This document shows positions 2,964-46,307 of a stretch of DNA of 64,000 nucleotides, piece by piece. Numbering within the stretch: the first letter of the stretch is position 1; each line of letters begins with the position of its first letter. Position numbers and translations under genes: made by a program. The notes below the pieces were generated by a model. The model saw only the letters and a program-made list of their open reading frames with translations, had not been told where the DNA came from and did no database searches. The DNA comes from Escherichia coli (GTDB lineage Bacteria; Pseudomonadota; Gammaproteobacteria; Enterobacterales; Enterobacteriaceae), in NCBI RefSeq assembly GCF_003991155.1, contig NZ_CP031293.1; one strand, given 5' to 3'.

Positions 2964-4463
2964 TTAACTCGCCGTTTCAGGTTTAAACACAATTTCCTGT
3001 TTTTCTTCATCTTCCTCGACGACTGGCGCAGTGCTGTGAATTTCAGCAACGCGTTTGCGCACACCAAACCAGCCTATAACCAGCAGAATACCGATAATCG
3101 GCAGCGCCGCGATAGTATAAGTCCCGTTCGGGTAATCGAACGCCATCAGCACCAGGACACTCAGTAAAAACAGTAATGTCAGCCAGGAAGTGAAGGGCGC
3201 GCCAGGCAGTTTAAAACTGACATCCGCTGCTTTGCCTTCTTTAATCGCTTTACGCAGGCGCATCTGGCACACGATGATAAACGCCCATGAAGCGATGATT
3301 CCCAGCGACGCGAAGTTCAACACAATCTCAAATACGCGCGACGGCACCAGATAGTTGAGGAATACGCCGACGACATACACAACCAGTGTCGCCAGAATCC
3401 CGGCATACGGCACATGCTGACGACTCATTTTCGCCATAAAACTCGGTGCGGAACCGCCCATCGCCATCGAGCGCAGAATACGTCCGGTGCAGTACAGACC
3501 TGAGTTCAGGCTGGAGAGGGCAGCGGTCAGCACCACAATGTTCATAATGCTGCCGATATATGGCACACCCAGTTTAGAGAAAAACGTCACGAACGGACTT
3601 TGCCCCGCCTGATACGCGCTCCACGGCAATAACATAACCAGCAACACCACGGAGCCGACGTAAAACAGACCAATACGCCAAATCACACTGTTAATCGCTT
3701 TAGGCACCATGGTCTGCGGATCTTTACATTCTCCGGCCGCTGTACCCACCATTTCAATGGAGGCAAAAGCAAACACTACGCCCTGAATCAACACCAGCGC
3801 AGGCAGCAAACCGTGGGGGAAAAAGCCGCCGTTATCGGTAATTAAATGAAAGCCAGTGGCGTTGCCATCCAGCGGCTGACCACTACCGAGGAACACTGTA
3901 CCCACGACCAAAAAGGTTACAATGGCGAGCACTTTAATAAGTGCAAACCAGAACTCCATCTCCGCAAACCATTTCACACCGATCATATTCATGGTGCCAA
4001 CGATGGTCAGTGCAGCGAGCGCAAAGACCCACTGCGGCACGCCGCCAAACGCGCCCCAGTAATGCATATACAGAGCGACGGCGGTAATATCAACAATCCC
4101 CGTCATCGCCCAGTTGATGAAGTACATCCAGCCTGCAACGTAAGCGGCTTTCTCTCCTAAAAACTCACGGGCATAAGAGACAAAACTGCCACTGGAAGGG
4201 CGGTGTAACACCAGCTCACCCAATGCACGCAGAATAAAAAACGAAAACAGGCCGCAGATCAAATAGACCAGTGCCAGTGCTGGCCCCGCCATTTGCAGTC
4301 GGGCTCCTGCACCTAAAAACAAGCCGGTGCCAATCGCGCCGCCAATGGCGATCATCTGTACCTGGCGATTGCCCATCGCTTTGTGATACCCCTCTTCGTG
4401 GGCATTAAGCCAGCGGCGTTTCGCGGCGTGCTGATCTGAAGTGTCGGTGTCGTGTTTACTCAT
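2964..4463 (-). CDS. ansP: L-asparagine permease (APC family)
   Basis: 516-aa ORF with 12-TM amino-acid permease sequence; start placed at internal ATG 4461-4463 (MSKHDTD...) which has a GGAGAG RBS; longer ORF start rejected. Confidence 0.85.
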   Translation of the reverse strand: MSKHDTDTSDQHAAKRRWLNAHEEGYHKAMGNRQVQMIAIGGAIGTGLFLGAGARLQMAGPALALVYLICGLFSFFILRALGELVLHRPSSGSFVSYAREFLGEKAAYVAGWMYFINWAMTGIVDITAVALYMHYWGAFGGVPQWVFALAALTIVGTMNMIGVKWFAEMEFWFALIKVLAIVTFLVVGTVFLGSGQPLDGNATGFHLITDNGGFFPHGLLPALVLIQGVVFAFASIEMVGTAAGECKDPQTMVPKAINSVIWRIGLFYVGSVVLLVMLLPWSAYQAGQSPFVTFFSKLGVPYIGSIMNIVVLTAALSSLNSGLYCTGRILRSMAMGGSAPSFMAKMSRQHVPYAGILATLVVYVVGVFLNYLVPSRVFEIVLNFASLGIIASWAFIIVCQMRLRKAIKEGKAADVSFKLPGAPFTSWLTLLFLLSVLVLMAFDYPNGTYTIAALPIIGILLVIGWFGVRKRVAEIHSTAPVVEEDEEKQEIVFKPETAS

Positions 4464-4729
4464 TGCTCTCCCTGATTGCTTTAATGAAAAAGTCATATAA
4501 GTTGCCATGAACAATGTTTATTCATCCTGGCGATGATAGTTATCACCATTATTCTTTATGGGTATAAAACTATCGGCGCAGCATCCTACCCGTTATCGAT
4601 AAACGATGCAAAACATCCCCTTACAATCCTGAAGGGGAATAATACAACTGACGAAAAAATGACAAATCCTTTTGCTGGTTAACCTGTGTACTGTCCTACA
4701 CTTAATCTTTAAAAGATTGTGAGGGGCAT

Positions 4730-5347
4730 ATGATTAAGGTGTATGGCGTACCCGGCTGGGGCTCTACAATCAGTGAGCTGATGCTAACACTGGCTGATAT
4801 TCCTTATCAGTTCGTTGATGTCAGTGGTTTTGACCGCGAGGGAACTTCACGCGAGTTATTGAAAACCCTGAACCCGTTGTGTCAGATTCCGACACTGGCG
4901 CTGGAAAATGACGAGATTATGACGGAGACAGCGGCGATTGCATTGATGGTTCTCGATCGTCGCCCGGACCTTGCGCCACCGCTTGGGCGCGCCGAACGTC
5001 AGCAGTTTCAACAGTTATTGGTCTGGCTGGTTGCTAATGTCTATCCAACGTTCACTTTCGCCGATTACCCTGAGCGTTGGGCATCTGACGCACCTGAACA
5101 GTTAAAGAAGAATGTAATTGAATATCGCAAATCACTTTATATCTGGCTGAATTCACAATTGACCGCTGAACCTTATGCCTTTGGTGAGCAACTAACGCTG
5201 GTGGACTGTTATCTCTGCACCATGCGCACATGGGGACCGGGACACGAATGGTTTCAGGATAATGCCCCGAACATCAATGCGATTGCTGATGCTGTATGTC
5301 AGATACCAAAGCTAAAAGGGATACTAAAGAGGAATGGAATCATTTAA
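4730..5347 (+). CDS. yncG: glutathione S-transferase-like protein
   Basis: 205-aa ORF, GST N- and C-domain features, RBS GAGGGG upstream. Confidence 0.8.
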   Translation: MIKVYGVPGWGSTISELMLTLADIPYQFVDVSGFDREGTSRELLKTLNPLCQIPTLALENDEIMTETAAIALMVLDRRPDLAPPLGRAERQQFQQLLVWLVANVYPTFTFADYPERWASDAPEQLKKNVIEYRKSLYIWLNSQLTAEPYAFGEQLTLVDCYLCTMRTWGPGHEWFQDNAPNINAIADAVCQIPKLKGILKRNGII

Positions 5348-6397
5348 TTATTTTTCCCATCGATTTCGCCCACTTTCTTTCGCCCGGTATAACGCAGCGT
5401 CGGCATCTGAAATAATTTGTTCAGCCGTTTTTGCGGGAGCAGAACAGGTAATCCCCTGACTAACCGTAACGAATGCATTAACAGCAGATGCCTGATGCGG
5501 GATAGCTGCCAGTTTAAGTTCTTGCTTCACTCTGGCTGCTACCGTCTCTGCTTCCGGCAATGTTGCATTAAAAAGTATGATGACAAACTCTTCGCCACCA
5601 TAACGGACAACAACATCCTCCGACTGGCGAGTTGAACGCTGTAGAGCGTCGGCAACTTGTATTAGACAACGATCCCCAGCAGGATGCCCGTAAGTGTCGT
5701 TGTAACGTTTAAAAAAATCGACATCCAGCATAATAAGAGCAAATGACCCGCCGTTATCTATCGCGTCGTGTAAGATACTGTTCATTGCACGTCGGTTTGC
5801 TATCCCAGTTAAAGGATCACGATGTGCTAATGCATCAAGGCGATTAATTAACTGGTTGTTATAACTGTTTTGTACCCATGCTTCTTCAAACCAACGTAAC
5901 AAAATGAGTCGCCCACCATATAGCGCCAGTGAAAAAATACACCATACAACAGCAAAATGAATATTGATCTGTTGATTAAGCATAAGACTCGCTATTGGAG
6001 TGGTGAACCATAAGGGAATGACAAATGCGAGCAATGATGGGGTATGGAAATAAAGTGCGATAACGCCACTAAGCATTAATAATACACATAGTGGATAAGC
6101 AAACTGCAGCGTCCAGTACGCAATAAAGTGATAACTACACCATGACCATAGCAGGCTCAGGGCAACTAATAGCACCTGGATAGGTAATGTTTTTTGCCGA
6201 GGGATGAGTAGTAAACCACTGCAAATCAGCAGAATACCCGTTGCAGATATATCAATAGAATGTATAAGGCTTTTTTCATTTAACCAGGGTGGAGTAAGGT
6301 CATTAAACAGAACACGGCGCAGCAAAATTATCAATGCAAAACTGACATTGATAAAAGCAAACCATGGCAAACTAATCGTCATGCCGCGAATAACCAT
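5348..6397 (-). CDS. membrane-anchored GGDEF diguanylate cyclase
   Basis: 349-aa ORF: N-terminal half is multi-pass hydrophobic, C-terminal half carries RYGGEEF active-site motif and DVDFFKRYND; start codon uncertain (6397 or 6382). Confidence 0.75.
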   Translation of the reverse strand: MVIRGMTISLPWFAFINVSFALIILLRRVLFNDLTPPWLNEKSLIHSIDISATGILLICSGLLLIPRQKTLPIQVLLVALSLLWSWCSYHFIAYWTLQFAYPLCVLLMLSGVIALYFHTPSLLAFVIPLWFTTPIASLMLNQQINIHFAVVWCIFSLALYGGRLILLRWFEEAWVQNSYNNQLINRLDALAHRDPLTGIANRRAMNSILHDAIDNGGSFALIMLDVDFFKRYNDTYGHPAGDRCLIQVADALQRSTRQSEDVVVRYGGEEFVIILFNATLPEAETVAARVKQELKLAAIPHQASAVNAFVTVSQGITCSAPAKTAEQIISDADAALYRAKESGRNRWEK

Positions 6398-6491
6398 ATC
6401 GCGGCGGGTTTTCCATGAGTGATGCGTTTTTCTTCGTTCAGCCCTTTTTTAACCAAAAAAGGGCAGGATACCTGCCCGGTATGCAGTAAAT

Positions 6492-8468
6492 TTATGGTGT
6501 CACTATATTGAACCAAAATTCAAAATTATCCATATAACCTAACAGCTCGTTGAGTTTTTCCGCATTGCCAGTAATTTTGACATCTTCTTTGGCCGTGGCT
6601 TCTTTCAGCGTCTCTTCTTTCAGTACAATTTTGTTCAATACATCACGAGACAGAGTGATAGTGGCATCAGCATCCGAAGCCTCTACACCAGCGGTATGAT
6701 TGAGAACACCATTTTCAAGCTCCACTTTATAGGTGCCGCCATCTTCACCAAAATCGAAATTCAACACGGTTTTGGCATCTGCCGCTTTCTCACCATTAAT
6801 ATGGACGGCAAGATAATCAAAGAACATCTCCGGCGTCATCGCACGCACGGTGTCTGGGCTGGCAGTATTTGGTGTTGGTAATTTTTGTACGCCATTACGC
6901 AATTCCTGTGCGCCAGTGAGATAGAAATTACGCCACGGCCCAGATTCAGCCTGATAGCCTAACTGCTCAAGCGCATCAGCTTCCAGATTTCTCGCTGCCT
7001 GGTTGTTTGGATCGGCAAACACCACCTTACTAACAACTTGGGCAACCCAGCGGAAATTACCCTGGTCATAATCCTGTTTGGCTTTCTGTAAAATGGCATC
7101 AGCACCGCCCATATACTCGACGAATTTTTTTGCGCCTTCTTCTGGCGGCAGTTCATCAAGCGTCGCGGGGTTACCATCAAACCAGCCGAGATAAAGCACG
7201 TAAGTTGCTTTCACGTCATGACTTACCGAACCGTAATAGCCGCGATTCGCCCAGGTATTAGCCAGTGAAGAGGGCAGTTTAAAGTTTGCGGCAATTTCAT
7301 CACGGGTCATCCCTTGATTTGCCATACGCAGAGTTTGATCATTGATGTAACGATACAAATCACGCTGGCTTTTAAGCAGTTTGACCACGTTATCGTTGCC
7401 CCAGGTTGGCCAGTGATGTTGAGCGAGAATAATCTCGGCTTTATCTCCCCATAAATTGAGAGCTTCGTTAATATATTTTGACCACGGCAGCGGTTGGCGA
7501 ATTTTAGCCCCACGCAGCGAATAGGTGTTATGAAGGGTGTGCGTGACATCTTCAGCGGTTTCGATCAGTTTCTTTTCTTCAATAAACCACAGCATTTCAG
7601 AAGGCGCTTCAGAGCCTGGCGCCATCAAGAAATCATAGGTCAACCCGTCAATAGTTTCTTTTTGTCCGGTTTTAGTGATGTAGTTAGTAGGAGCAATCAA
7701 CGTGACCGTTCCTGCTGAAGTGGTTGTTCCCAGTCCCGCGCCAACCTGGCCTTTAACATCAGGTTTCAATAAGTTGCCATACATATAACTGGCTCGTCGG
7801 CTCATCACATTGCCAGCCATAATATTTTCGGAAACGGCTTCCTCCAAAAATCCGGCTGGCGCGTAGATTTTAACTTTGCCTGATTTAACGTCAGCTTCAT
7901 CAATTACGCCGCGAACACCACCGTAGTGATCGACATGACTGTGTGTGTAGATAACCGCTACTACCGGTTTTTTGTCGCGATTTTTGTAATAGAGATCCAT
8001 ACCCACTTTGGCTGTTTCTGCTGAAACAAGGGGATCAACGATGGTAATACCCTCTTTACCTTCAATGATGGTCATATTTGATAGATCGAGATTGCGAATC
8101 TGATAGACACCTTCAGTTACTTCGAATAACCCGCTGATATTTATCAGTTGCGCCTGACGCCATAAACTTGGATTCACCGTATCAGGGGCTTTATCACCTT
8201 CTTTAATAAAAGCGTATTGTTGTGGATCCCAGATAACATTTCCTTTTTCGCCCTTAATCACGTCTTGAGGGATAGGGGCAACAAAACCTTTATGGGCATC
8301 AGTAAAGTCAGTGTTATCAGAAAACGGCAACTGGTTGTAGAGTAAATTGTTTGCTTGTTGCGTGGCTGCGGTGGCGTCTTTAGGGGCTTCCGCCGCGAGG
8401 AGTGGCAAAGAACTGGTGGTGAACAATCCCGTTATTAGCAGACTTTTAACAATATGATTAAGCTGCAT
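6492..8468 (-). CDS. alkyl/aryl-sulfatase, metallo-beta-lactamase fold (YjcS/SdsA1-like), secreted
   Basis: 658-aa ORF with signal peptide (LPLLAAEA) and MBL zinc motif THSHVDHYGG. Confidence 0.75.
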   Translation of the reverse strand: MQLNHIVKSLLITGLFTTSSLPLLAAEAPKDATAATQQANNLLYNQLPFSDNTDFTDAHKGFVAPIPQDVIKGEKGNVIWDPQQYAFIKEGDKAPDTVNPSLWRQAQLINISGLFEVTEGVYQIRNLDLSNMTIIEGKEGITIVDPLVSAETAKVGMDLYYKNRDKKPVVAVIYTHSHVDHYGGVRGVIDEADVKSGKVKIYAPAGFLEEAVSENIMAGNVMSRRASYMYGNLLKPDVKGQVGAGLGTTTSAGTVTLIAPTNYITKTGQKETIDGLTYDFLMAPGSEAPSEMLWFIEEKKLIETAEDVTHTLHNTYSLRGAKIRQPLPWSKYINEALNLWGDKAEIILAQHHWPTWGNDNVVKLLKSQRDLYRYINDQTLRMANQGMTRDEIAANFKLPSSLANTWANRGYYGSVSHDVKATYVLYLGWFDGNPATLDELPPEEGAKKFVEYMGGADAILQKAKQDYDQGNFRWVAQVVSKVVFADPNNQAARNLEADALEQLGYQAESGPWRNFYLTGAQELRNGVQKLPTPNTASPDTVRAMTPEMFFDYLAVHINGEKAADAKTVLNFDFGEDGGTYKVELENGVLNHTAGVEASDADATITLSRDVLNKIVLKEETLKEATAKEDVKITGNAEKLNELLGYMDNFEFWFNIVTP

Positions 8469-8772
8469 CTTAAGCGTCTCCAGAATGGACTTTTATTGGG
8501 GGTAATTACGGATGAAAATTTTTGTGAGGGCAAGAATAACTATAATGGGCGTTAATAAATTGGCAAGCCGGGAACTTGATGTTTTCTTAATGGCATGTTG
8601 GCGAAGAATATATTCTGCAAGTTGACGTTTTTGTTGGCGCTTTATTTAAAAGGGTGTAGTACAAACCTGTACAAATTCAAGTAGGCATTATTGCCGTAAA
8701 AAAGCATCACCGGACACATAACATTCACAACGTGTGTTAATTTTACTGACATCTTTCAAAAGGAGCACAATC

Positions 8773-9000
8773 ATGCCGCACATAGACATTAAATGTTTTC
8801 CACGTGAACTGGACGAACAACAAAAAGCAGCACTTGCTGCAGATATTACCGACGTTATTATTCGCCATCTGAACAGTAAAGACAGTTCGATAAGCATTGC
8901 TCTACAGCAGATTCAACCAGAATCATGGCAAGCTATCTGGGACGCCGAAATTGCGCCCCAAATGGAGACGCTGATAAAGAAACCTGGTTACAGCATGTAA
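8773..9000 (+). CDS. pptA: 4-oxalocrotonate tautomerase-family enzyme
   Basis: Track ORF 8734..9000 trimmed to ATG 8773 ([13 protein letters not shown]..., catalytic Pro2) preceded by AAAAGGAG RBS. Confidence 0.85.
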
Positions 9001-9003
9001 TGC

Positions 9004-9573
9004 TTAACCTGCCGTAACACGCTTCCCGCTGGTAACAAACGTGCCAGCACCTAAATGATGTAGTGTATTGAGCTTATCATCATCAAACTGCCAGCGGCCT
9101 TCGACAAATACCCGTGCGTCTGCCGCTGCTGATACCACTTCGCCAAACAGCGTGTCGTATTTTTCTTGCGCAGAAGTCGCAGGTAGCAGGCGACACTCCA
9201 TCCACGCCAGACATTTTTCCTCGACCAGCGGCAAACCAAGCACCGGACCTTTCACAACCGGAATACCATAGCAGTTAAACTTATCTTCATCACGCCCCGA
9301 CACACTTCCCACCGCCCACGTCCAGTCAGTCGCCGCAACGCCTGGGATAACGATGCCAAATTTACCGTTACGTTCAATCAACTCCCTGGTCCATGTCGAT
9401 TTATCTACCACAATCGCCACGCGTGGCGGTTCAAACTCTACGGGCATAGACCAGGCTGCTGCCATAATGTTACGCCGCTGGGATTGCTCATCGAAACTGG
9501 TGATCATGACAGTTGGGCCATGATTTAACAGACGGCTGGCATGGTGTAATTCGACGGGAATGAATTGGCTCAC
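9004..9573 (-). CDS. yddH: flavin reductase-like domain protein
   Basis: 189-aa ORF, flavin-reductase-like fold sequence; convergent with pptA. Confidence 0.8.
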   Translation of the reverse strand: MSQFIPVELHHASRLLNHGPTVMITSFDEQSQRRNIMAAAWSMPVEFEPPRVAIVVDKSTWTRELIERNGKFGIVIPGVAATDWTWAVGSVSGRDEDKFNCYGIPVVKGPVLGLPLVEEKCLAWMECRLLPATSAQEKYDTLFGEVVSAAADARVFVEGRWQFDDDKLNTLHHLGAGTFVTSGKRVTAG

Positions 9574-9747
9574 GATATCGCCTCGCTATGAAGGGTGTTT
9601 TAAAAGCGTAGCTCGTAACGCAATAAGTAACGAAATTAACGGGATTGGCGATTTGCGAACGTGATGCATGTCCGCGATCGCACAAAATAGCCAGTGCGGC
9701 GTCTATTCCAGGTTATAAGTTGAGAAAACCACTAAGGGAAACGCCTG

Positions 9748-10593
9748 ATGACGCCCATTCTGAATCACTATTTTGCCCGTATTAACTGGTTGGGAGCTGC
9801 TGCGGCCAATATTGATACGCTGCGTGCATTGCACCTGAAACACAATTGCACCATTCCGTTTGAAAATCTCGACGTTTTGCTGCCGAGGGAAATACAGCTT
9901 GATGATCAATCGCTGGAAGAGAAACTGGTGATAGCCCGTCGTGGCGGTTACTGTTTTGAGCAGAATGGCGTGTTTGAGCGTGTGTTACGCGAGCTGGGGT
10001 TTAACGTTCGCAGCTTGTTAGGGCGCGTAGTGTTATCAAATCCGCCAGCATTACCGCCGCGCACCCATCGTTTGCTGTTGGTGGAACTGGAAGGGGAAAA
10101 ATGGATTGCTGATGTCGGTTTCGGTGGGCAGACGCTAACCGCGCCGATTCGTTTAATGCCGGATATCATGCAAACCACGCCACACGGAGAGTATCGGTTG
10201 TTGCAAGAGGGTGATGATTGGGTGTTGCAGTTTAATCATCATCAGCACTGGCAGTCGATGTACCGTTTTGATCTCTGCGAGCAGCAACAAAGCGATTATG
10301 TGATGGGCAATTTCTGGTCGGCGCATTGGCCGCAGTCGCATTTTCGCCATCATTTGCTGATGTGTCGCCATTTGCCGGACGGTGGCAAGCTAACACTGAC
10401 CAATTTTCATTTTACCCATTATGAAAATGGGCACGCGGTGGAGCAGCGAAATCTACCAGATGTGGCGTCGTTATATGCCGTGATGCAGGAACAGTTTGGT
10501 CTGGGCGTAGATGATGCGAAACATGGCTTTACTGTGGATGAGTTAGCGCTGGTGATGGCGGCGTTTGATACGCACCCGGAGGCGGGGAAATAG
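9748..10593 (+). CDS. nhoA: N-hydroxyarylamine O-acetyltransferase
   Basis: 281-aa ORF with arylamine N-acetyltransferase catalytic Cys context (RGGYCFEQN). Confidence 0.9.
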   Translation: MTPILNHYFARINWLGAAAANIDTLRALHLKHNCTIPFENLDVLLPREIQLDDQSLEEKLVIARRGGYCFEQNGVFERVLRELGFNVRSLLGRVVLSNPPALPPRTHRLLLVELEGEKWIADVGFGGQTLTAPIRLMPDIMQTTPHGEYRLLQEGDDWVLQFNHHQHWQSMYRFDLCEQQQSDYVMGNFWSAHWPQSHFRHHLLMCRHLPDGGKLTLTNFHFTHYENGHAVEQRNLPDVASLYAVMQEQFGLGVDDAKHGFTVDELALVMAAFDTHPEAGK

Positions 10594-10606: not shown

Positions 10607-11831
<1,225 letters not shown>

Positions 11832-42500: not shown

Positions 42501-44900
42501 TCAGATTTTCAGCGGTAACACACTGCTCATCCAGCCTGGAATTTCTTCGGCGGGTAGGGGGCGGGAAAAGAAATATCCCTGAATAACGCGACAGTGGATC
42601 TTGCGTAGCATCTCAAATTGCTCTTTGGTTTCGACGCCTTCCGCCACGACGGTTAAATTAAGGCTTTGCCCAATGCTGGTAATGGCTTCAAGTAAGGCAA
42701 GGATGCGTTTTTCCGTCAGACAACGATCGACAAAACTTTTGTCAATTTTGATTTCCGTTACCGGAAGACTGACTAAGCGGGATAATCCGGAAAAGCCCGT
42801 GCCAAAATCATCTACCGATAAGCCCACGCCCATATCGCGCAGGATCTGAATGCGCTTAAAGATTTCGGTATCGTGTTCCATCATCATGCTTTCCGTGATT
42901 TCTACCGTCAGCTGGTGGCCGTCAATACCCCAGGCTTGCATTGCATCAGACACCTGATTAGGCAGCTGATTACTGCGAAAGTGCAGCGCCGACAAGTTCA
43001 CGGATAACGCCGGGATATGAATATTCTGGCTACGCCATTCTGCTAACTGACGACAAGCTTCCGCGATGACCCAGCGTCCAATATTTTCTATTTCACCGAT
43101 CTCTTCTGCGAGAGGAATAAACCGTGAAGGGGGCACATGACCATGCAGGGGATCGTGCCAGCGAGCAAGGGCTTCGATGCCGTACAGTTCACCCGTTTCT
43201 GCGAAGATTTGTGGCTGGTAAACCAGTTTCAGTTGGTTATTGCTAATTGCTTCTTTCAGCGCCGCGCCTAAAACCAAACGCTCTTTTACCATTTCGTTCA
43301 TCGCCGGGCTGAAGAACTGCCAGCCGTTACCGCCATTTTTGCGAATAAAATCCATTGCATTGTGAGCAGTGGAGAGCAGGTAATCGCGGTTTTTACCCAC
43401 GTCGTAGCTGATGCCAATGCTCAAGGTGAGCGGGAATGGTTTATCGTCAATCATTATCGGCTTGCTGACCACATTCCGTAGCTCATCGGCGATCTGCGTA
43501 ATGTTACTGACGTCGTTTTCGAGGCTCACGAGGACAAACTGCGTACCTTCGATACGACAGAGATATTGATCCGGTTTGAGTTTTTCACGAAAGCGATTGA
43601 CCACTTCCAGCAATGCCTGATCGGCCCACGCATAGCCAAGGCTATCAATCACATCCTGAATATGGTCAACACCGATGAGATACACCACCGGAGAGACGGC
43701 TTTGTCGACCAGGTCATCGAGGTAATTGTGCAGGTTATTGCGATTTGGCAGACCGGTCATCGGATCAAATTGGATGAGTTGTTCAATATGCTGACGGCTT
43801 TTTTCCTGTTCCAGCGCCAGCGCGGCCATATGCTGGCTAATATCTGCCACGCGTTCGATAAAGGCGCTGGTTTCTGCTCCTGACGAGGTTTTAATTTGCA
43901 GGATCCCCGCCGGCGCACCATCACGCTGACGAATGGTCGCTGACCAGCTTTGCGCATTTTGAACTTCTGCACCGTGCGAAGATGACGCCCAGTGTATCGG
44001 CATCCCGTTGCGCAGCGCGAACAGCGAAACATGCGATTCGTTGAGTACAGATTCGATGTTACGACAAATGATTTCCCCCATTTCATGAAATGGCGGGCTG
44101 CTGCACATGGCGGCGAGAATATTGCCTTCAAGCTGGCGGATTTGCCGTTCTTCGGTGATATCCGAGAAGGTCATTACCAGGTTCTGCAGATGCGCGAGCA
44201 CGTCATAAACCGGGCTGATAGAGGCTTTAATCCAGATTTTTTCACCGGTGCGCGTCAACAGCAGAAATTCATCCTGATCGCGGGCGGTTTTCCATAGCAA
44301 CTGTTGTAAACGAATGCGGTTATCGGCAGGGAATTCAGGAATGTTAAGGAGTGAATCGGGCTGCATACCGCTGGCTTCGCTAATGCAGTAACCAAACATT
44401 TCGGTAAATGCGCGATTGCACTGCACAATATGGCGTTCCGGATCGAGGACAATCACCGGTCGGTCGAGATGGTCAACGGCAATAATCAATTGTCGGGTCT
44501 GTTCTTTTTGCGCCATTTCTACGCTGGCATCCCGTACCAGCGCCAGGTAATAAACTTTCCCCTCGGCGCTCACTTTCGATAGCGCAAAACGGGTCCAGAT
44601 TTTACTGCCGTCTTTTTTCTCCAGCTGCAGCTCCCGACTCATCCCCTCGACGCGCGCTTTACCGCCTTCACGGTTGTGACGGATATATTCAGGATGCGCA
44701 GGACGCAAATCCCGCGGAATCAGCATATCAATGTTATTGCCAATGACTTCTTCACGTTTGTATCCCCAGAGCTTCTCTGCGGCGGGGTTGAAAAACATCA
44801 CTTCATCATTTTCGTTAATTAACACCGCGCCCATCATATTTTGCTCAAGGGCGGGGAAAAAAATGCCATCGGCGGCATTATCCGCATCGGTTAGCTTCAT
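42501..44900 (-). CDS. dosP: oxygen-sensing c-di-GMP phosphodiesterase (haem-PAS, GGDEF-EAL)
   Basis: Track ORF trimmed to ATG 44898-44900 (MKLTDADNAADGIFFP..., 799 aa). Confidence 0.9.
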   Translation of the reverse strand: MKLTDADNAADGIFFPALEQNMMGAVLINENDEVMFFNPAAEKLWGYKREEVIGNNIDMLIPRDLRPAHPEYIRHNREGGKARVEGMSRELQLEKKDGSKIWTRFALSKVSAEGKVYYLALVRDASVEMAQKEQTRQLIIAVDHLDRPVIVLDPERHIVQCNRAFTEMFGYCISEASGMQPDSLLNIPEFPADNRIRLQQLLWKTARDQDEFLLLTRTGEKIWIKASISPVYDVLAHLQNLVMTFSDITEERQIRQLEGNILAAMCSSPPFHEMGEIICRNIESVLNESHVSLFALRNGMPIHWASSSHGAEVQNAQSWSATIRQRDGAPAGILQIKTSSGAETSAFIERVADISQHMAALALEQEKSRQHIEQLIQFDPMTGLPNRNNLHNYLDDLVDKAVSPVVYLIGVDHIQDVIDSLGYAWADQALLEVVNRFREKLKPDQYLCRIEGTQFVLVSLENDVSNITQIADELRNVVSKPIMIDDKPFPLTLSIGISYDVGKNRDYLLSTAHNAMDFIRKNGGNGWQFFSPAMNEMVKERLVLGAALKEAISNNQLKLVYQPQIFAETGELYGIEALARWHDPLHGHVPPSRFIPLAEEIGEIENIGRWVIAEACRQLAEWRSQNIHIPALSVNLSALHFRSNQLPNQVSDAMQAWGIDGHQLTVEITESMMMEHDTEIFKRIQILRDMGVGLSVDDFGTGFSGLSRLVSLPVTEIKIDKSFVDRCLTEKRILALLEAITSIGQSLNLTVVAEGVETKEQFEMLRKIHCRVIQGYFFSRPLPAEEIPGWMSSVLPLKI

Positions 44901-44924: not shown

Positions 44925-46307
44925 CTAAAGACTGGCTTTCCAGAGTTCAACACGGTTTCTACCTCGTCTTTTGGCGATATACAGAGCTTCATCGGCTATT
45001 TGAATGAGGCGCTCATAGTCAGGATGACCATTAAACATGGCGGCACCGATGGAAAGTGAGAGGGCAATATCTTCGCCGTTTGCGGCTTTCAGTTTGGTTT
45101 TCTCCACCCGACTGCGAATACGTTCTGCGGTACGTAACGTTTCGTTTTCCGAAGCTTCAGTCAAAACAATGATAAATTCATCGCCACCGTAGCGGAAAAC
45201 ATAATCACTACTGCGGACGTTGTCATAAAAGGCCTGAGAGACTTTACGCAGAATTTCATCGCCAGTGTTATGGCCCCACGTATCGTTAATCTCTTTGAAT
45301 TTATCAACGTCAATAATCAGCACTGACAGCGGTGTACCGGTCCGGTTGGCATGGGCAATTTCGCGTTTGAAGATAGTCGGCAGGAAACGGCGGTTAAGTA
45401 ATTTCGTCAGGACATCCATACCGACTTCGTGGCGCGATACTTCTTCAAACAATTCACGCAACAAGGTAATAATTTGCGATACGGTATTTCTTATCTGTAA
45501 TAAAAATTTCACCCGTAAACTTCTGTTATTCAAATTCCTGGTGTTACGCATGGTTTGATTGAAAATACCGTCGAAATCCTGAATCAGACGGGAGATATGG
45601 CCCACTTCGGCTATGCCGCTAAAATAATGTCGACCTTTATGGTTAAACCACAGGCCAAAATCAGCCTGGCTTAAAGGCAAACTACTGCCTAAATCAGAAT
45701 CCAGCAGGACTTTATAGATAATATCTATTTCCCATGAAAGTATTGAGGCTATTTGCCGTTCTTTTTCTTCTTCGGCATTTTCCAGTAACGAGAAGATACG
45801 ATAGTTTTCATCTTCCTTTGAGGCACTACTGTCACTAAAGGTAAACGCGCGGGTCATCACTTCCATAGCGATATCAATACTGTTAATCGAGAAATGGTAG
45901 ACCTGAAGTTTTTCTGCGGCGGAATAATCCGAAGAGAAGATTACCGGATAGAGGATTTTTTTCAGCACCCGAAACCCCATCTCGACAATTTCTACCGGAA
46001 TTCCTATGCGGGCATGCACTTCCGCGACGGTATGCTGGATTTGTATTAGCCTTTCGACATCGTCAACCTGGGCAGAAAGCACGTTAATAATCCAGCGTTC
46101 CATCGCACTTTTCAACTGCCGCTCAACTTGTTCATTACTCAAGAATTCTTCGGCATGCGGGTCGATGCGGACAATTCGATAAAACTCAATACTCAGATAA
46201 TGAGCATGCGCAACGGCAATTTCCGCGGCTTTAGCACGAATGAGCGGATCTGCTTGTTCGACAAGCCCGGTCCACTCATCTTTCATTCTTTTAAAATACA
46301 TCTCCAT
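44925..46307 (-). CDS. dosC: globin-coupled diguanylate cyclase
   Basis: 460 aa, C-terminal GGDEF domain with RYGGDEF; co-oriented 24 bp upstream of dosP. Confidence 0.9.
   Translation of the reverse strand: MEMYFKRMKDEWTGLVEQADPLIRAKAAEIAVAHAHYLSIEFYRIVRIDPHAEEFLSNEQVERQLKSAMERWIINVLSAQVDDVERLIQIQHTVAEVHARIGIPVEIVEMGFRVLKKILYPVIFSSDYSAAEKLQVYHFSINSIDIAMEVMTRAFTFSDSSASKEDENYRIFSLLENAEEEKERQIASILSWEIDIIYKVLLDSDLGSSLPLSQADFGLWFNHKGRHYFSGIAEVGHISRLIQDFDGIFNQTMRNTRNLNNRSLRVKFLLQIRNTVSQIITLLRELFEEVSRHEVGMDVLTKLLNRRFLPTIFKREIAHANRTGTPLSVLIIDVDKFKEINDTWGHNTGDEILRKVSQAFYDNVRSSDYVFRYGGDEFIIVLTEASENETLRTAERIRSRVEKTKLKAANGEDIALSLSIGAAMFNGHPDYERLIQIADEALYIAKRRGRNRVELWKASL

Follow-up and report, generated by a model that had tools for sequence, protein, structure and literature searches.

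A MASE5-GGDEF cyclase gene and an alkyl-sulfatase gene between yncG and pptA of Escherichia coli, probably ancestral and lost in most strains

The closest studied relative of the cyclase described here is STM4551 of S. Typhimurium (353 aa), a proven diguanylate cyclase that is inactivated by a GGEEF-to-GGAEF mutation (PMC3229569). STM4551 restrains invasion and motility, and some of its effects are independent of catalysis (PMC3229569, PMC9275015). In P. aeruginosa, ImcA (PA1851), known from the cryo-EM structure 8wcn, places a six-transmembrane-helix region before a GGDEF domain; ImcA requires its membrane region for activity and binds the partner protein IsmP (PMC10904736). The type III alkyl-sulfatases, including SdsA1, SdsAP, Pisa1 and YjcS, hydrolyze SDS and other alkyl sulfates (PMC6107682). 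In K-12, the chromosomal slot between yncG and pptA is occupied by the rhsE / H-repeat (ISAs1) locus. A second diguanylate cyclase of E. coli that is foreign to K-12, DgcY, was reportedly described by Povolotsky & Hengge and by Hengge et al., both in 2016, and our search of the literature found no functional work on it.

Here, we analyzed a stretch of 64,000 nucleotides of an E. coli chromosome (NZ_CP031293.1), referred to as the window, in which the interval between yncG and pptA is filled by two minus-strand open reading frames:

4730–5347, plus strand: yncG, glutathione S-transferase family, left flank (ORF list, Pfam, annotation)
5348–6397, minus strand: MASE5-GGDEF diguanylate cyclase, coding sequence of 349 aa, WP_000236738.1 (ORF, Pfam, NCBIfam, RefSeq)
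6492–8468, minus strand: type III (metallo-beta-lactamase fold) alkyl/aryl-sulfatase, coding sequence of 658 aa, WP_001176574.1 (ORF, Pfam, RefSeq, PDB matches)
8773–9000, plus strand: pptA, tautomerase, right flank (Pfam, annotation)
42501–44900, minus strand: dosP (annotation of the matching record)
44925–46307, minus strand: dosC (annotation of the matching record)

The stop codons of yncG and the cyclase abut with a gap of 0 bp, and no Rfam match to a regulatory RNA is found in 4400–9800 at E ≤ 1. Both genes are ordinary and already annotated, and both are of kinds already known. The first-pass annotation had counted three c-di-GMP enzymes in the 64 kb, and dosC and dosP are indeed annotated alongside the MASE5-GGDEF cyclase; their co-location has no demonstrated meaning, dosCP being core genome and lying ~36 kb away.

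Analysis of the cyclase reveals a membrane domain followed by a GGDEF domain, with the following features:

5828–6373, minus strand: MASE5 membrane domain, aa 9–190 (Pfam PF17178, E 4.7e-44; AlphaFold2; hydropathy)
5360–5827, minus strand: GGDEF catalytic domain, aa 191–346 (Pfam PF00990, E 1.2e-48; TIGR00254; PDB matches)
5615–5629, minus strand: R257-Q-S-E-D261 at the I-site position (sequence, homologue alignment)
5585–5599, minus strand: GGEEF active-site motif, aa 267–271 (sequence; invariant in 84 homologues)

PF17178 matches with 151 bits (cut-off 25.2) over profile positions 2–192 of 192, PF00990 with 165.4 bits (cut-off 23.8) over positions 1–161 of 161, and TIGR00254 with 158 bits (cut-off 37.4). 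The protein is thus a membrane-anchored GGDEF cyclase with a whole RYGGEEF, as initially proposed. Its N-terminal domain, described at first as uncharacterised, is named by the domain search as MASE5, which is widespread in Enterobacterales and is also matched in cyclase homologues from Salmonella and others; we know of no signal for it. The GGDEF domain has matches in both sequence and fold to ImcA, WspR, PleD and SiaD in the PDB. The metal- and GTP-binding residues of such enzymes have roles established from PleD and WspR, and in the window cyclase D225, N233, D242, R265, the GGEEF motif, K340 and R344 are invariant across the 84 homologues. A canonical RxxD I-site is not present, since the position of the required arginine is Gln258; the homologue family keeps RxxxD in its place. 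In the canonical arrangement, RxxD ends five residues before GG(D/E)EF (PMC4287979). A terminator-like match at 5576–5602, inside the GGEEF coding sequence, is taken as chance.

Two AlphaFold2 models (mean pLDDT 86 and 84) predict six MASE5 helices at approximately 3–30, 42–64, 70–95, 100–115, 119–141 and 146–191, in agreement with hydropathy, with almost no periplasmic loops and with a long last helix that extends unbroken into the GGDEF domain. In the PDB, the full model matches ImcA (8wcn) best (Foldseek E 1.9e-15, 366 columns). The MASE5 model alone has no significant fold match in the PDB (best E 0.6); its highest TM-score is to ImcA (0.46–0.48, rmsd 5.5), a match that is itself not significant (E 1.5, 13% identity). 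Unlike ImcA, the window cyclase has no gene for an IsmP-like partner nearby. The architecture of STM4551 is the same, with ~50% identity over the full length; the Salmonella protein in our comparison, P0101, was equated with STM4551 by elimination among five S. Typhimurium GGDEF-only proteins, the published E267 standing against E273 in P0101.

By analogy with STM4551, we infer a catalytically competent enzyme that would form dimers in the inner membrane and convert GTP to c-di-GMP, its six-helix membrane domain being coupled to the GGDEF domain via the one continuous helix. Such an enzyme would be free of canonical RxxD product inhibition, and its output may feed the usual E. coli targets, that is, the motility brake, cellulose, curli and PGA. 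Like DgcY, it is an accessory GGDEF cyclase without a K-12 counterpart. Pfam MASE5 was presumably created for the membrane domain of DgcY, and, with DgcX excluded, we take the window cyclase to be a candidate DgcY. DgcX was rejected for its MASE4-type eight-helix domain, its canonical I-site and its location beside prophage DNA at attB. Paralogy with K-12 DgcF (YneF) was likewise rejected, since DgcF lacks MASE5 and its alignment is confined to the GGDEF domains (27% identity).

The second gene of the interval carries these features:

7926–7943, minus strand: HSHVDH (HxHxDH) metal-binding motif, aa 176–181 (sequence; identical in the 7tl5 alignment)
8391–8468, minus strand: probable Sec signal peptide, approximately aa 1–26 (sequence, extent of homologue alignments)
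8539–8566, minus strand: sigma-70-like promoter match, TTGCCA-16-TATAGT, 10 of 12, the best upstream of the sulfatase (consensus match only)

Three Pfam domains, PF00753 (Lactamase_B), PF14863 (Alkyl_sulf_dimr, 211 bits) and PF14864 (Alkyl_sulf_C, 151 bits), together with a weak additional SCP2 match, and the HSHVDH form of the binuclear-zinc motif bear out the earlier identification of an alkyl-sulfatase of the metallo-beta-lactamase fold; the PGSEAP, AEDVTH and AQHHWP motifs are also identical in the alignment to 7tl5. The N-terminus is hydrophobic (MQLNHIVKSLLITGLFTTSSLPLLAAEA) and is skipped by the solved homologues, which align only from approximately residue 26–29 onward, consistent with a cleaved export signal such as the signal peptide first proposed. 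Its three-domain build and HxHxDH motif are shared by 7tl5, SdsA1, SdsAP, Pisa1 (2yhe, of the same type III group) and YjcS. Its PDB matches include 7tl5 (1185 bits), SdsAP (4nur, 1038), YjcS (4pdx, 707) and SdsA1 (2cfu, 625), the latter three matching over the full mature length. YjcS, a core enzyme of E. coli, is a paralogue and not the same protein. By homology, the sulfatase would be an exported, zinc-dependent type III enzyme acting in the periplasm, and its substrates are most likely primary alkyl sulfate esters (SDS-like surfactants, natural sulfated lipids or alcohols), which would be converted to alcohol and sulfate.

The pair is present in 438 of 5426 complete E. coli genomes (~8%) and absent from ~92%, including K-12. 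In the K-12-type slot, both genes are absent, and yncH, an rhsE remnant (RHS pseudogene), ydcD, yncO and two ISAs1 transposase genes are found between yncG and pptA. The first-pass annotation had placed an Rhs region at this position in K-12, and had named the same two genes there as the finding that would contradict it; neither is there, so the placement was right. In contrast to the K-12 locus, that of the window strain is free of Rhs, vgrG, yncH and ISAs1 sequence. Homology to K-12 stops at 5345 and resumes at 8684, which lies 11 bp from the end of the K-12 ISAs1 (ydcC) coding sequence. Two further segments mark this boundary:

8399–8468, no strand assigned: 70-bp 5' end of the sulfatase, surviving as a scar beside ISAs1 in non-carriers (e.g., FUJ80154)
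8469–8683, no strand assigned: sulfatase upstream region, also absent from K-12 (K-12 comparison)

In FUJ80154, both genes are gone and the 70 bp of the sulfatase stand directly beside an ISAs1 copy. A megablast search with the 70-bp query (28-base exact word) matched 184 genomes, a count that is too low, and an evenly spaced sample gives a very rough estimate of ~70 scar-bearing genomes. The sulfatase of GF3-3 is a pseudogene. Rhs and the pair are not alternative occupants: about 350 E. coli genomes, among them 13P477T with its Rhs island, have both. The direct yncG–cyclase junction seen in the window is found in 86 genomes only.

The gene order in outgroups was read from contigs located by exact protein matches; a scan of contigs was dominated by generic GGDEF patterns and gave only 7 full-length relatives. 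The order pptA-sulfatase-cyclase is found in E. whittamii and in the Escherichia-like contigs L007, L094 and L096. E. albertii has pptA-sulfatase followed by Rhs fragments, Citrobacter sedlakii has nhoA-yddH-sulfatase-yncG-ansP, and a Citrobacter-like contig has yddH-cyclase-yncG, so that the former two carry the sulfatase only and the latter the cyclase only. Divergence of the sulfatase tracks that of its flanks, the C. sedlakii sulfatase, for example, being 92% identical against 81–93% for the flanking genes. Values of dN/dS between species (0.03–0.07 for the sulfatase, 0.15–0.25 for the cyclase) indicate purifying selection on both genes, and divergence among Escherichia cyclase alleles is quicker in the sensor half than in the catalytic one. 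GC3 of the E. coli genes is 0.37 for the cyclase and 0.43 for the sulfatase against 0.51–0.56 for the neighbors, whereas the Citrobacter-type orthologues of both genes match theirs. The low GC3 fits low expression or relaxed selection or, less probably, a transfer that reached Escherichia long ago through recombination.

We therefore favor, at a probability of roughly 80%, the reading that these are two independent, ordinary chromosomal genes belonging to the ancestral content of the yncG–pptA/yddH interval in Escherichia and Citrobacter, and that they were lost in most E. coli. Because outgroup synteny points to the pair as ancestral content, the K-12 state appears to be a derived deletion adjoining ISAs1/Rhs, the direction being loss and not gain. 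In this scenario, a toxin island of the vgrG/Rhs type, bearing copies of ISAs1 (H-repeat), would have entered between ansP/yncG and the cyclase in Escherichia, and ISAs1-adjacent deletions would then have taken out both genes in most lineages, including that of K-12. The window strain would be in a rare Rhs-free, undeleted condition and represent the locus as it was before the island came in and the deletions followed. The earlier description of a strain-variable slot consequently holds as far as the 438 carriers among 5426 genomes go, but the pair seems to be ancestral by outgroup synteny and not extra cargo.

Two further elements of the minus strand lie between the genes:

6398–6445, minus strand: what is left, in frame, of the N-terminal extension (16 codons) that marks a 365-aa long form, AERRKTHHSWKTRRD (sequence, carrier comparison)
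6451–6477, minus strand: intrinsic-terminator-like hairpin GGGCAGG-TAT-CCTGCCC with a T6 run, 14 nt past the sulfatase stop (sequence; conserved in relatives)

E. whittamii, L007, L094 and L096 have kept the hairpin. The N-terminal extension, with its W..TR motif, is kept across genera, and its start codon (6443–6445), ATG in most other carriers, is AGG in the window strain. The exact 61-mer around this lost start is common to only 32 of 435 carriers, and an alternative hairpin, overlapping the terminator, is extended by the T-to-G change at 6444. The motif described at the outset as intact is whole, but the cyclase lacks both the long-form ATG and a canonical RxxD I-site. Between the terminator and the ATG at 6397, neither a Shine-Dalgarno sequence nor a promoter can be recognised, and the cyclase may therefore be weakly made in this strain. 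RefSeq annotates the 349-aa form even in carriers with an upstream ATG, so that translation may in fact begin at Met1 (6397).

The pair could instead be an islet that reached a minority of E. coli strains by horizontal gain at a hot spot of recombination. Its presence in only 8% of complete genomes, the AT-richness of both genes relative to their neighbors (low GC3 being the one island-like feature), the fact that Rhs/vgrG islands are known to land in this slot and the unusually polymorphic yncG adjoining it would all agree with such a gain. We consider it very improbable, and the idea largely refuted here, since the same interval is filled in E. whittamii, E. albertii, C. sedlakii and similar contigs with divergence that tracks the flanks, and sulfatase deletion scars lie beside ISAs1 in non-carriers. 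The boundaries between yncG and pptA in the window carry neither mobility genes nor repeats, and PLSDB holds no true plasmid with the pair, its single match being a 4.9-Mb chromosome mislabelled as a plasmid. A different proposal joins the two genes in a surfactant-response module, in which the periplasmic sulfatase acts on alkyl sulfates and the amphiphilic substrate or its alcohol product enters the inner membrane and is sensed by MASE5, with c-di-GMP then promoting aggregation or biofilm. The proposed analogue is the SDS-induced, SiaD-dependent aggregation of P. aeruginosa, reportedly described by Klebensberger et al. in 2007 and 2009. The genes are co-directional neighbors, kept in several Escherichia lineages with a gap of ~50–100 bp, and the near absence of periplasmic loops in the MASE5 models makes an intramembrane ligand plausible; the T-to-G change at 6444 might then tune terminator readthrough via the longer alternative hairpin. 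This proposal, too, is very unlikely in our judgment, as a strong conserved terminator separates the genes, their selective constraint is very different, and their adjacency, kept within Escherichia, does not hold in Citrobacter-type genomes or in E. albertii, where one gene or the other stands alone in the same slot. Moreover, no sulfatase gene accompanies the MASE5-GGDEF genes of Enterobacter, Hafnia, Mangrovibacter and Aeromonas, and no conserved partner gene is common to the MASE5 cyclase loci of six genera. The conserved terminator and the separate occurrence and loss of each gene suggest that sulfatase and cyclase are probably independent and not one functional unit.

A third alternative concerns the window strain itself, in which the cyclase could be decaying, that is, poorly translated or silent, with an intact-looking frame heading for loss. 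The ATG-to-AGG change at the long-form start, seen in at most 32 of 435 carriers, the lack of a recognisable ribosome-binding site or promoter downstream of the terminator, the GC3 of 0.37, the repeated loss of the gene across Escherichia and a dN/dS of 0.67 between two E. coli alleles (from very few substitutions) lend themselves to this interpretation. We nevertheless regard it as possible but doubtful, because the frame is full length with all catalytic residues in place, Met1 at 6397 may be the start given the RefSeq annotation of the 349-aa form, and the between-species dN/dS of 0.15–0.25 reflects long-term constraint.

In sum, with the pair read as ancestral, K-12 would be the derived state at the yncG–pptA locus, a point whose importance beyond bookkeeping is small. 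Should the surfactant module prove true, it would provide the first ligand class for MASE5, and the Escherichia alleles offer natural variation of use to MASE5 studies. The sulfatase would be a second alkyl-sulfatase of E. coli, closer to a Pseudomonas SDS hydrolase than to the species' own YjcS. The cyclase is an accessory enzyme of ~8% of complete E. coli genomes, and its closest studied relative affects invasion and motility in Salmonella. The set of c-di-GMP enzymes in E. coli would have shrunk by IS/Rhs-associated deletion, besides having expanded through gains such as that of the prophage-borne DgcX.

The window is 100% identical to E. coli 2016C-3878 (NZ_CP029747.1). As the first-pass annotation had described, a GGDEF cyclase and an alkyl-sulfatase lie between yncG and pptA, and Pfam and RefSeq agree on both genes; dosC and dosP, which it had placed in the same window, are annotated there as well.

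5347: end of yncG, its stop codon touching that of the cyclase
5348-6397, minus strand: cyclase, 349 aa (RefSeq 'GGDEF domain-containing protein')
6492-8468, minus strand: sulfatase, 658 aa (RefSeq 'alkyl/aryl-sulfatase')
8773: start of pptA
42501-44900: dosP
44925-46307: dosC

The cyclase comprises a whole-model MASE5 domain (Pfam, residues 9-190, E = 4.7e-44) and a GGDEF domain (residues 191-346, E = 1.2e-48). The motif reported as intact is indeed so: the set of residues needed by GGDEF enzymes is complete, and D225, N233, D242, R265, GGEEF (267-271), K340 and R344 are invariant in 84 homologues. The canonical I-site RxxD (PMC4287979) is missing, with Gln at 258 where Arg is needed, and the family keeps R257 and D261 in its place. 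In the AlphaFold2 model (mean pLDDT 86), short loops connect six predicted membrane helices, and helix six (about 146-191) is predicted to continue unbroken into the GGDEF domain. Its best solved match over the full length, ImcA/PA1851, has the same layout of six helices and GGDEF, and its own membrane part is required for activity and partner binding; the MASE5 domain alone returned no significant solved homologue. Full-length relatives, at ~50% identity, are frequent in Enterobacter, Lelliottia, Leclercia, Hafnia, Pantoea and Salmonella. By elimination, the Salmonella Typhimurium relative is STM4551, a demonstrated cyclase that limits invasion and motility. DgcX was ruled out as the identity of the slot cyclase, which is probably the accessory cyclase named DgcY, and K-12 DgcF, which has no MASE5 domain, was ruled out as a paralogue.

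The sulfatase consists of Lactamase_B, Alkyl_sulf_dimr and Alkyl_sulf_C domains and retains the conserved active-site stretches, HSHVDH among them. Of its solved relatives, 7tl5 (1185 bits) and SdsAP, an SDS hydrolase from Pseudomonas (1038 bits), are nearest, ahead of E. coli YjcS (707 bits), then Pisa1 and SdsA1; this enzyme group hydrolyses SDS and other alkyl sulfates (PMC6107682). The signal peptide proposed earlier fits a hydrophobic N-terminus and homology that begins only at about residue 26-29, a pattern that would agree with periplasmic export. A second, mechanistically unrelated sulfatase system, ydeN (Cys-type sulfatase) with ydeM (anaerobic sulfatase maturase), occupies 58813-61704.

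The first-pass annotation was right that K-12 carries different, Rhs-related content here. In a K-12-type genome the slot reads yncG, yncH, RHS pseudogene, ydcD, yncO, two ISAs1 transposase genes and pptA, and neither the cyclase nor the sulfatase is there. The slot is strain-variable, as proposed: of 5426 complete E. coli genomes, 438 possess 80% or more of the 3.4-kb pair segment. Only 86 genomes have the window's direct yncG-cyclase junction. The remaining ~350 carriers resemble strain 13P477T, in which a 10.6-kb island (vgrG, DcrB-like, RHS, immunity, SymE, partial ISAs1) replaces yncG and is followed by cyclase, sulfatase and pptA; since these genomes hold both, Rhs content and the pair are not alternatives. 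The island junctions of 13P477T and E. whittamii are identical (window 4613 and 5356), around unlike contents: 10.6 kb of vgrG-Rhs in the former, and 2.8 kb with two ORFs lacking a Pfam match in the latter. For a core gene, yncG (4730-5347) is unusually polymorphic (93% amino-acid and about 95% nucleotide identity to K-12; only 84-86% against many E. coli over its last 150 bp), which suggests old haplotypes or recombination beside the island site.

Exact-protein look-ups located the orthologous interval in relatives. It reads nhoA-yddH-sulfatase-yncG-ansP in Citrobacter sedlakii, yddH-cyclase-yncG without sulfatase in a Citrobacter-like contig, pptA-sulfatase-cyclase and then a small island in E. 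whittamii, and pptA-sulfatase and then Rhs fragments in E. albertii, where the cyclase is missing from exactly window 6447; two Escherichia-like contigs (L094, L096) and a genome (L007) have sulfatase-cyclase. Sulfatase identity tracks that of the flanking genes (C. sedlakii, 92% against 81-93%; E. albertii, 94% against 84-98%; E. whittamii, 98% against 96-99%).

Scars remain in non-carrier E. coli. Homology restarts in FUJ80154 at 8399, a point 70 bp into the sulfatase gene with an ISAs1 pseudogene 10 bp away, and in K-12 at 8684, 11 bp from ISAs1; GF3-3 has an internal stop in the sulfatase. The pair is on no true plasmid in PLSDB (the 4.9-Mb E. coli 'plasmid' NZ_CP134663.1 is evidently a chromosome). 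In the parsimonious reading, the pair would have long resided in the slot, an Rhs island of T6SS type, together with copies of ISAs1, would have inserted beside it, and ISAs1-adjacent deletions would then have removed genes. The pair is ancestral content lost by K-12 and most E. coli, rather than gained, and the window strain represents a rare state, Rhs-free and undeleted. The counter-signal to old residence is low GC3 (cyclase 0.37, sulfatase 0.43, against 0.51-0.56 in yddH and nhoA), which we read as probable drift under weak expression; Citrobacter-type orthologues have the composition of their neighbours.

That the two genes form a surfactant-sensing module is unlikely. A strong hairpin with a T-run (GGGCAGGTATCCTGCCC-TTTTTT, 6477-6451), conserved across Escherichia, follows the sulfatase stop codon and separates it from the cyclase, each gene is found without the other in the same slot elsewhere, and MASE5 cyclase loci in other genera lack a sulfatase and share no neighbouring gene. 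We therefore treat the genes as probably independent.

In comparisons between species the cyclase has a dN/dS of 0.15-0.25, several-fold above the 0.03-0.07 of the sulfatase. Four of the five between-species comparisons show more divergence in the MASE5 half than in the GGDEF half, the exception being E. whittamii. The cyclase of L096 is a mosaic allele: compared with the window, dS is 0.18 in the sulfatase and 0.29 in the GGDEF half, but reaches 0.89 in the MASE5 half (73% amino-acid identity), which points to recombination swapping divergent sensor-domain alleles within Escherichia. The two allele groups within E. coli, represented by the window and 13P477T, are close in the cyclase (dS 0.010) and far more distant in the adjacent sulfatase (dS 0.089), implying that a recombination breakpoint lies somewhere in or between these genes.

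The description of the cyclase as intact holds for its catalytic residues and fails for its longer start. In most homologues the N-terminus is extended by 16-23 residues that include a conserved W..TR motif; the extension begins at an ATG 16 codons upstream (365-aa form) in E. whittamii, in L007 and in other E. coli. The window has AGG instead (base 6444), with the remaining extension readable in frame; its exact 61-mer is common to only 32 of 435 carriers. Any translation of the cyclase in this strain must start at 6397 or later, and the stretch from the terminator to the ATG at 6397 shows no evident Shine-Dalgarno sequence or promoter. The same T-to-G change also extends an alternative hairpin (6442-6466, minus strand; CCCUUUUUU-GGUU-AAAAAAGGG), which overlaps the conserved terminator in its 3' arm and U-tract and could alter readthrough into the cyclase.

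Elsewhere in the window, an IS621 (IS110-family) transposase gene (10831-11811, plus strand) lies between nhoA and yddE, a spot where K-12-type and 13P477T genomes lack it. At about 21.4-23.4 kb (record 2118371-2120358), between yddG and narU, a gene for a leucine-rich-repeat protein and a truncated LRR pseudogene adjoin an ompC-annotated porin gene.

In sum, the finding of the first-pass annotation is real and rightly described, and concerns genes of known kinds already annotated in hundreds of genomes. What is added beyond these known genes is the polarity of the variation, loss, and, as a second addition, the strain-specific change of the cyclase start codon.
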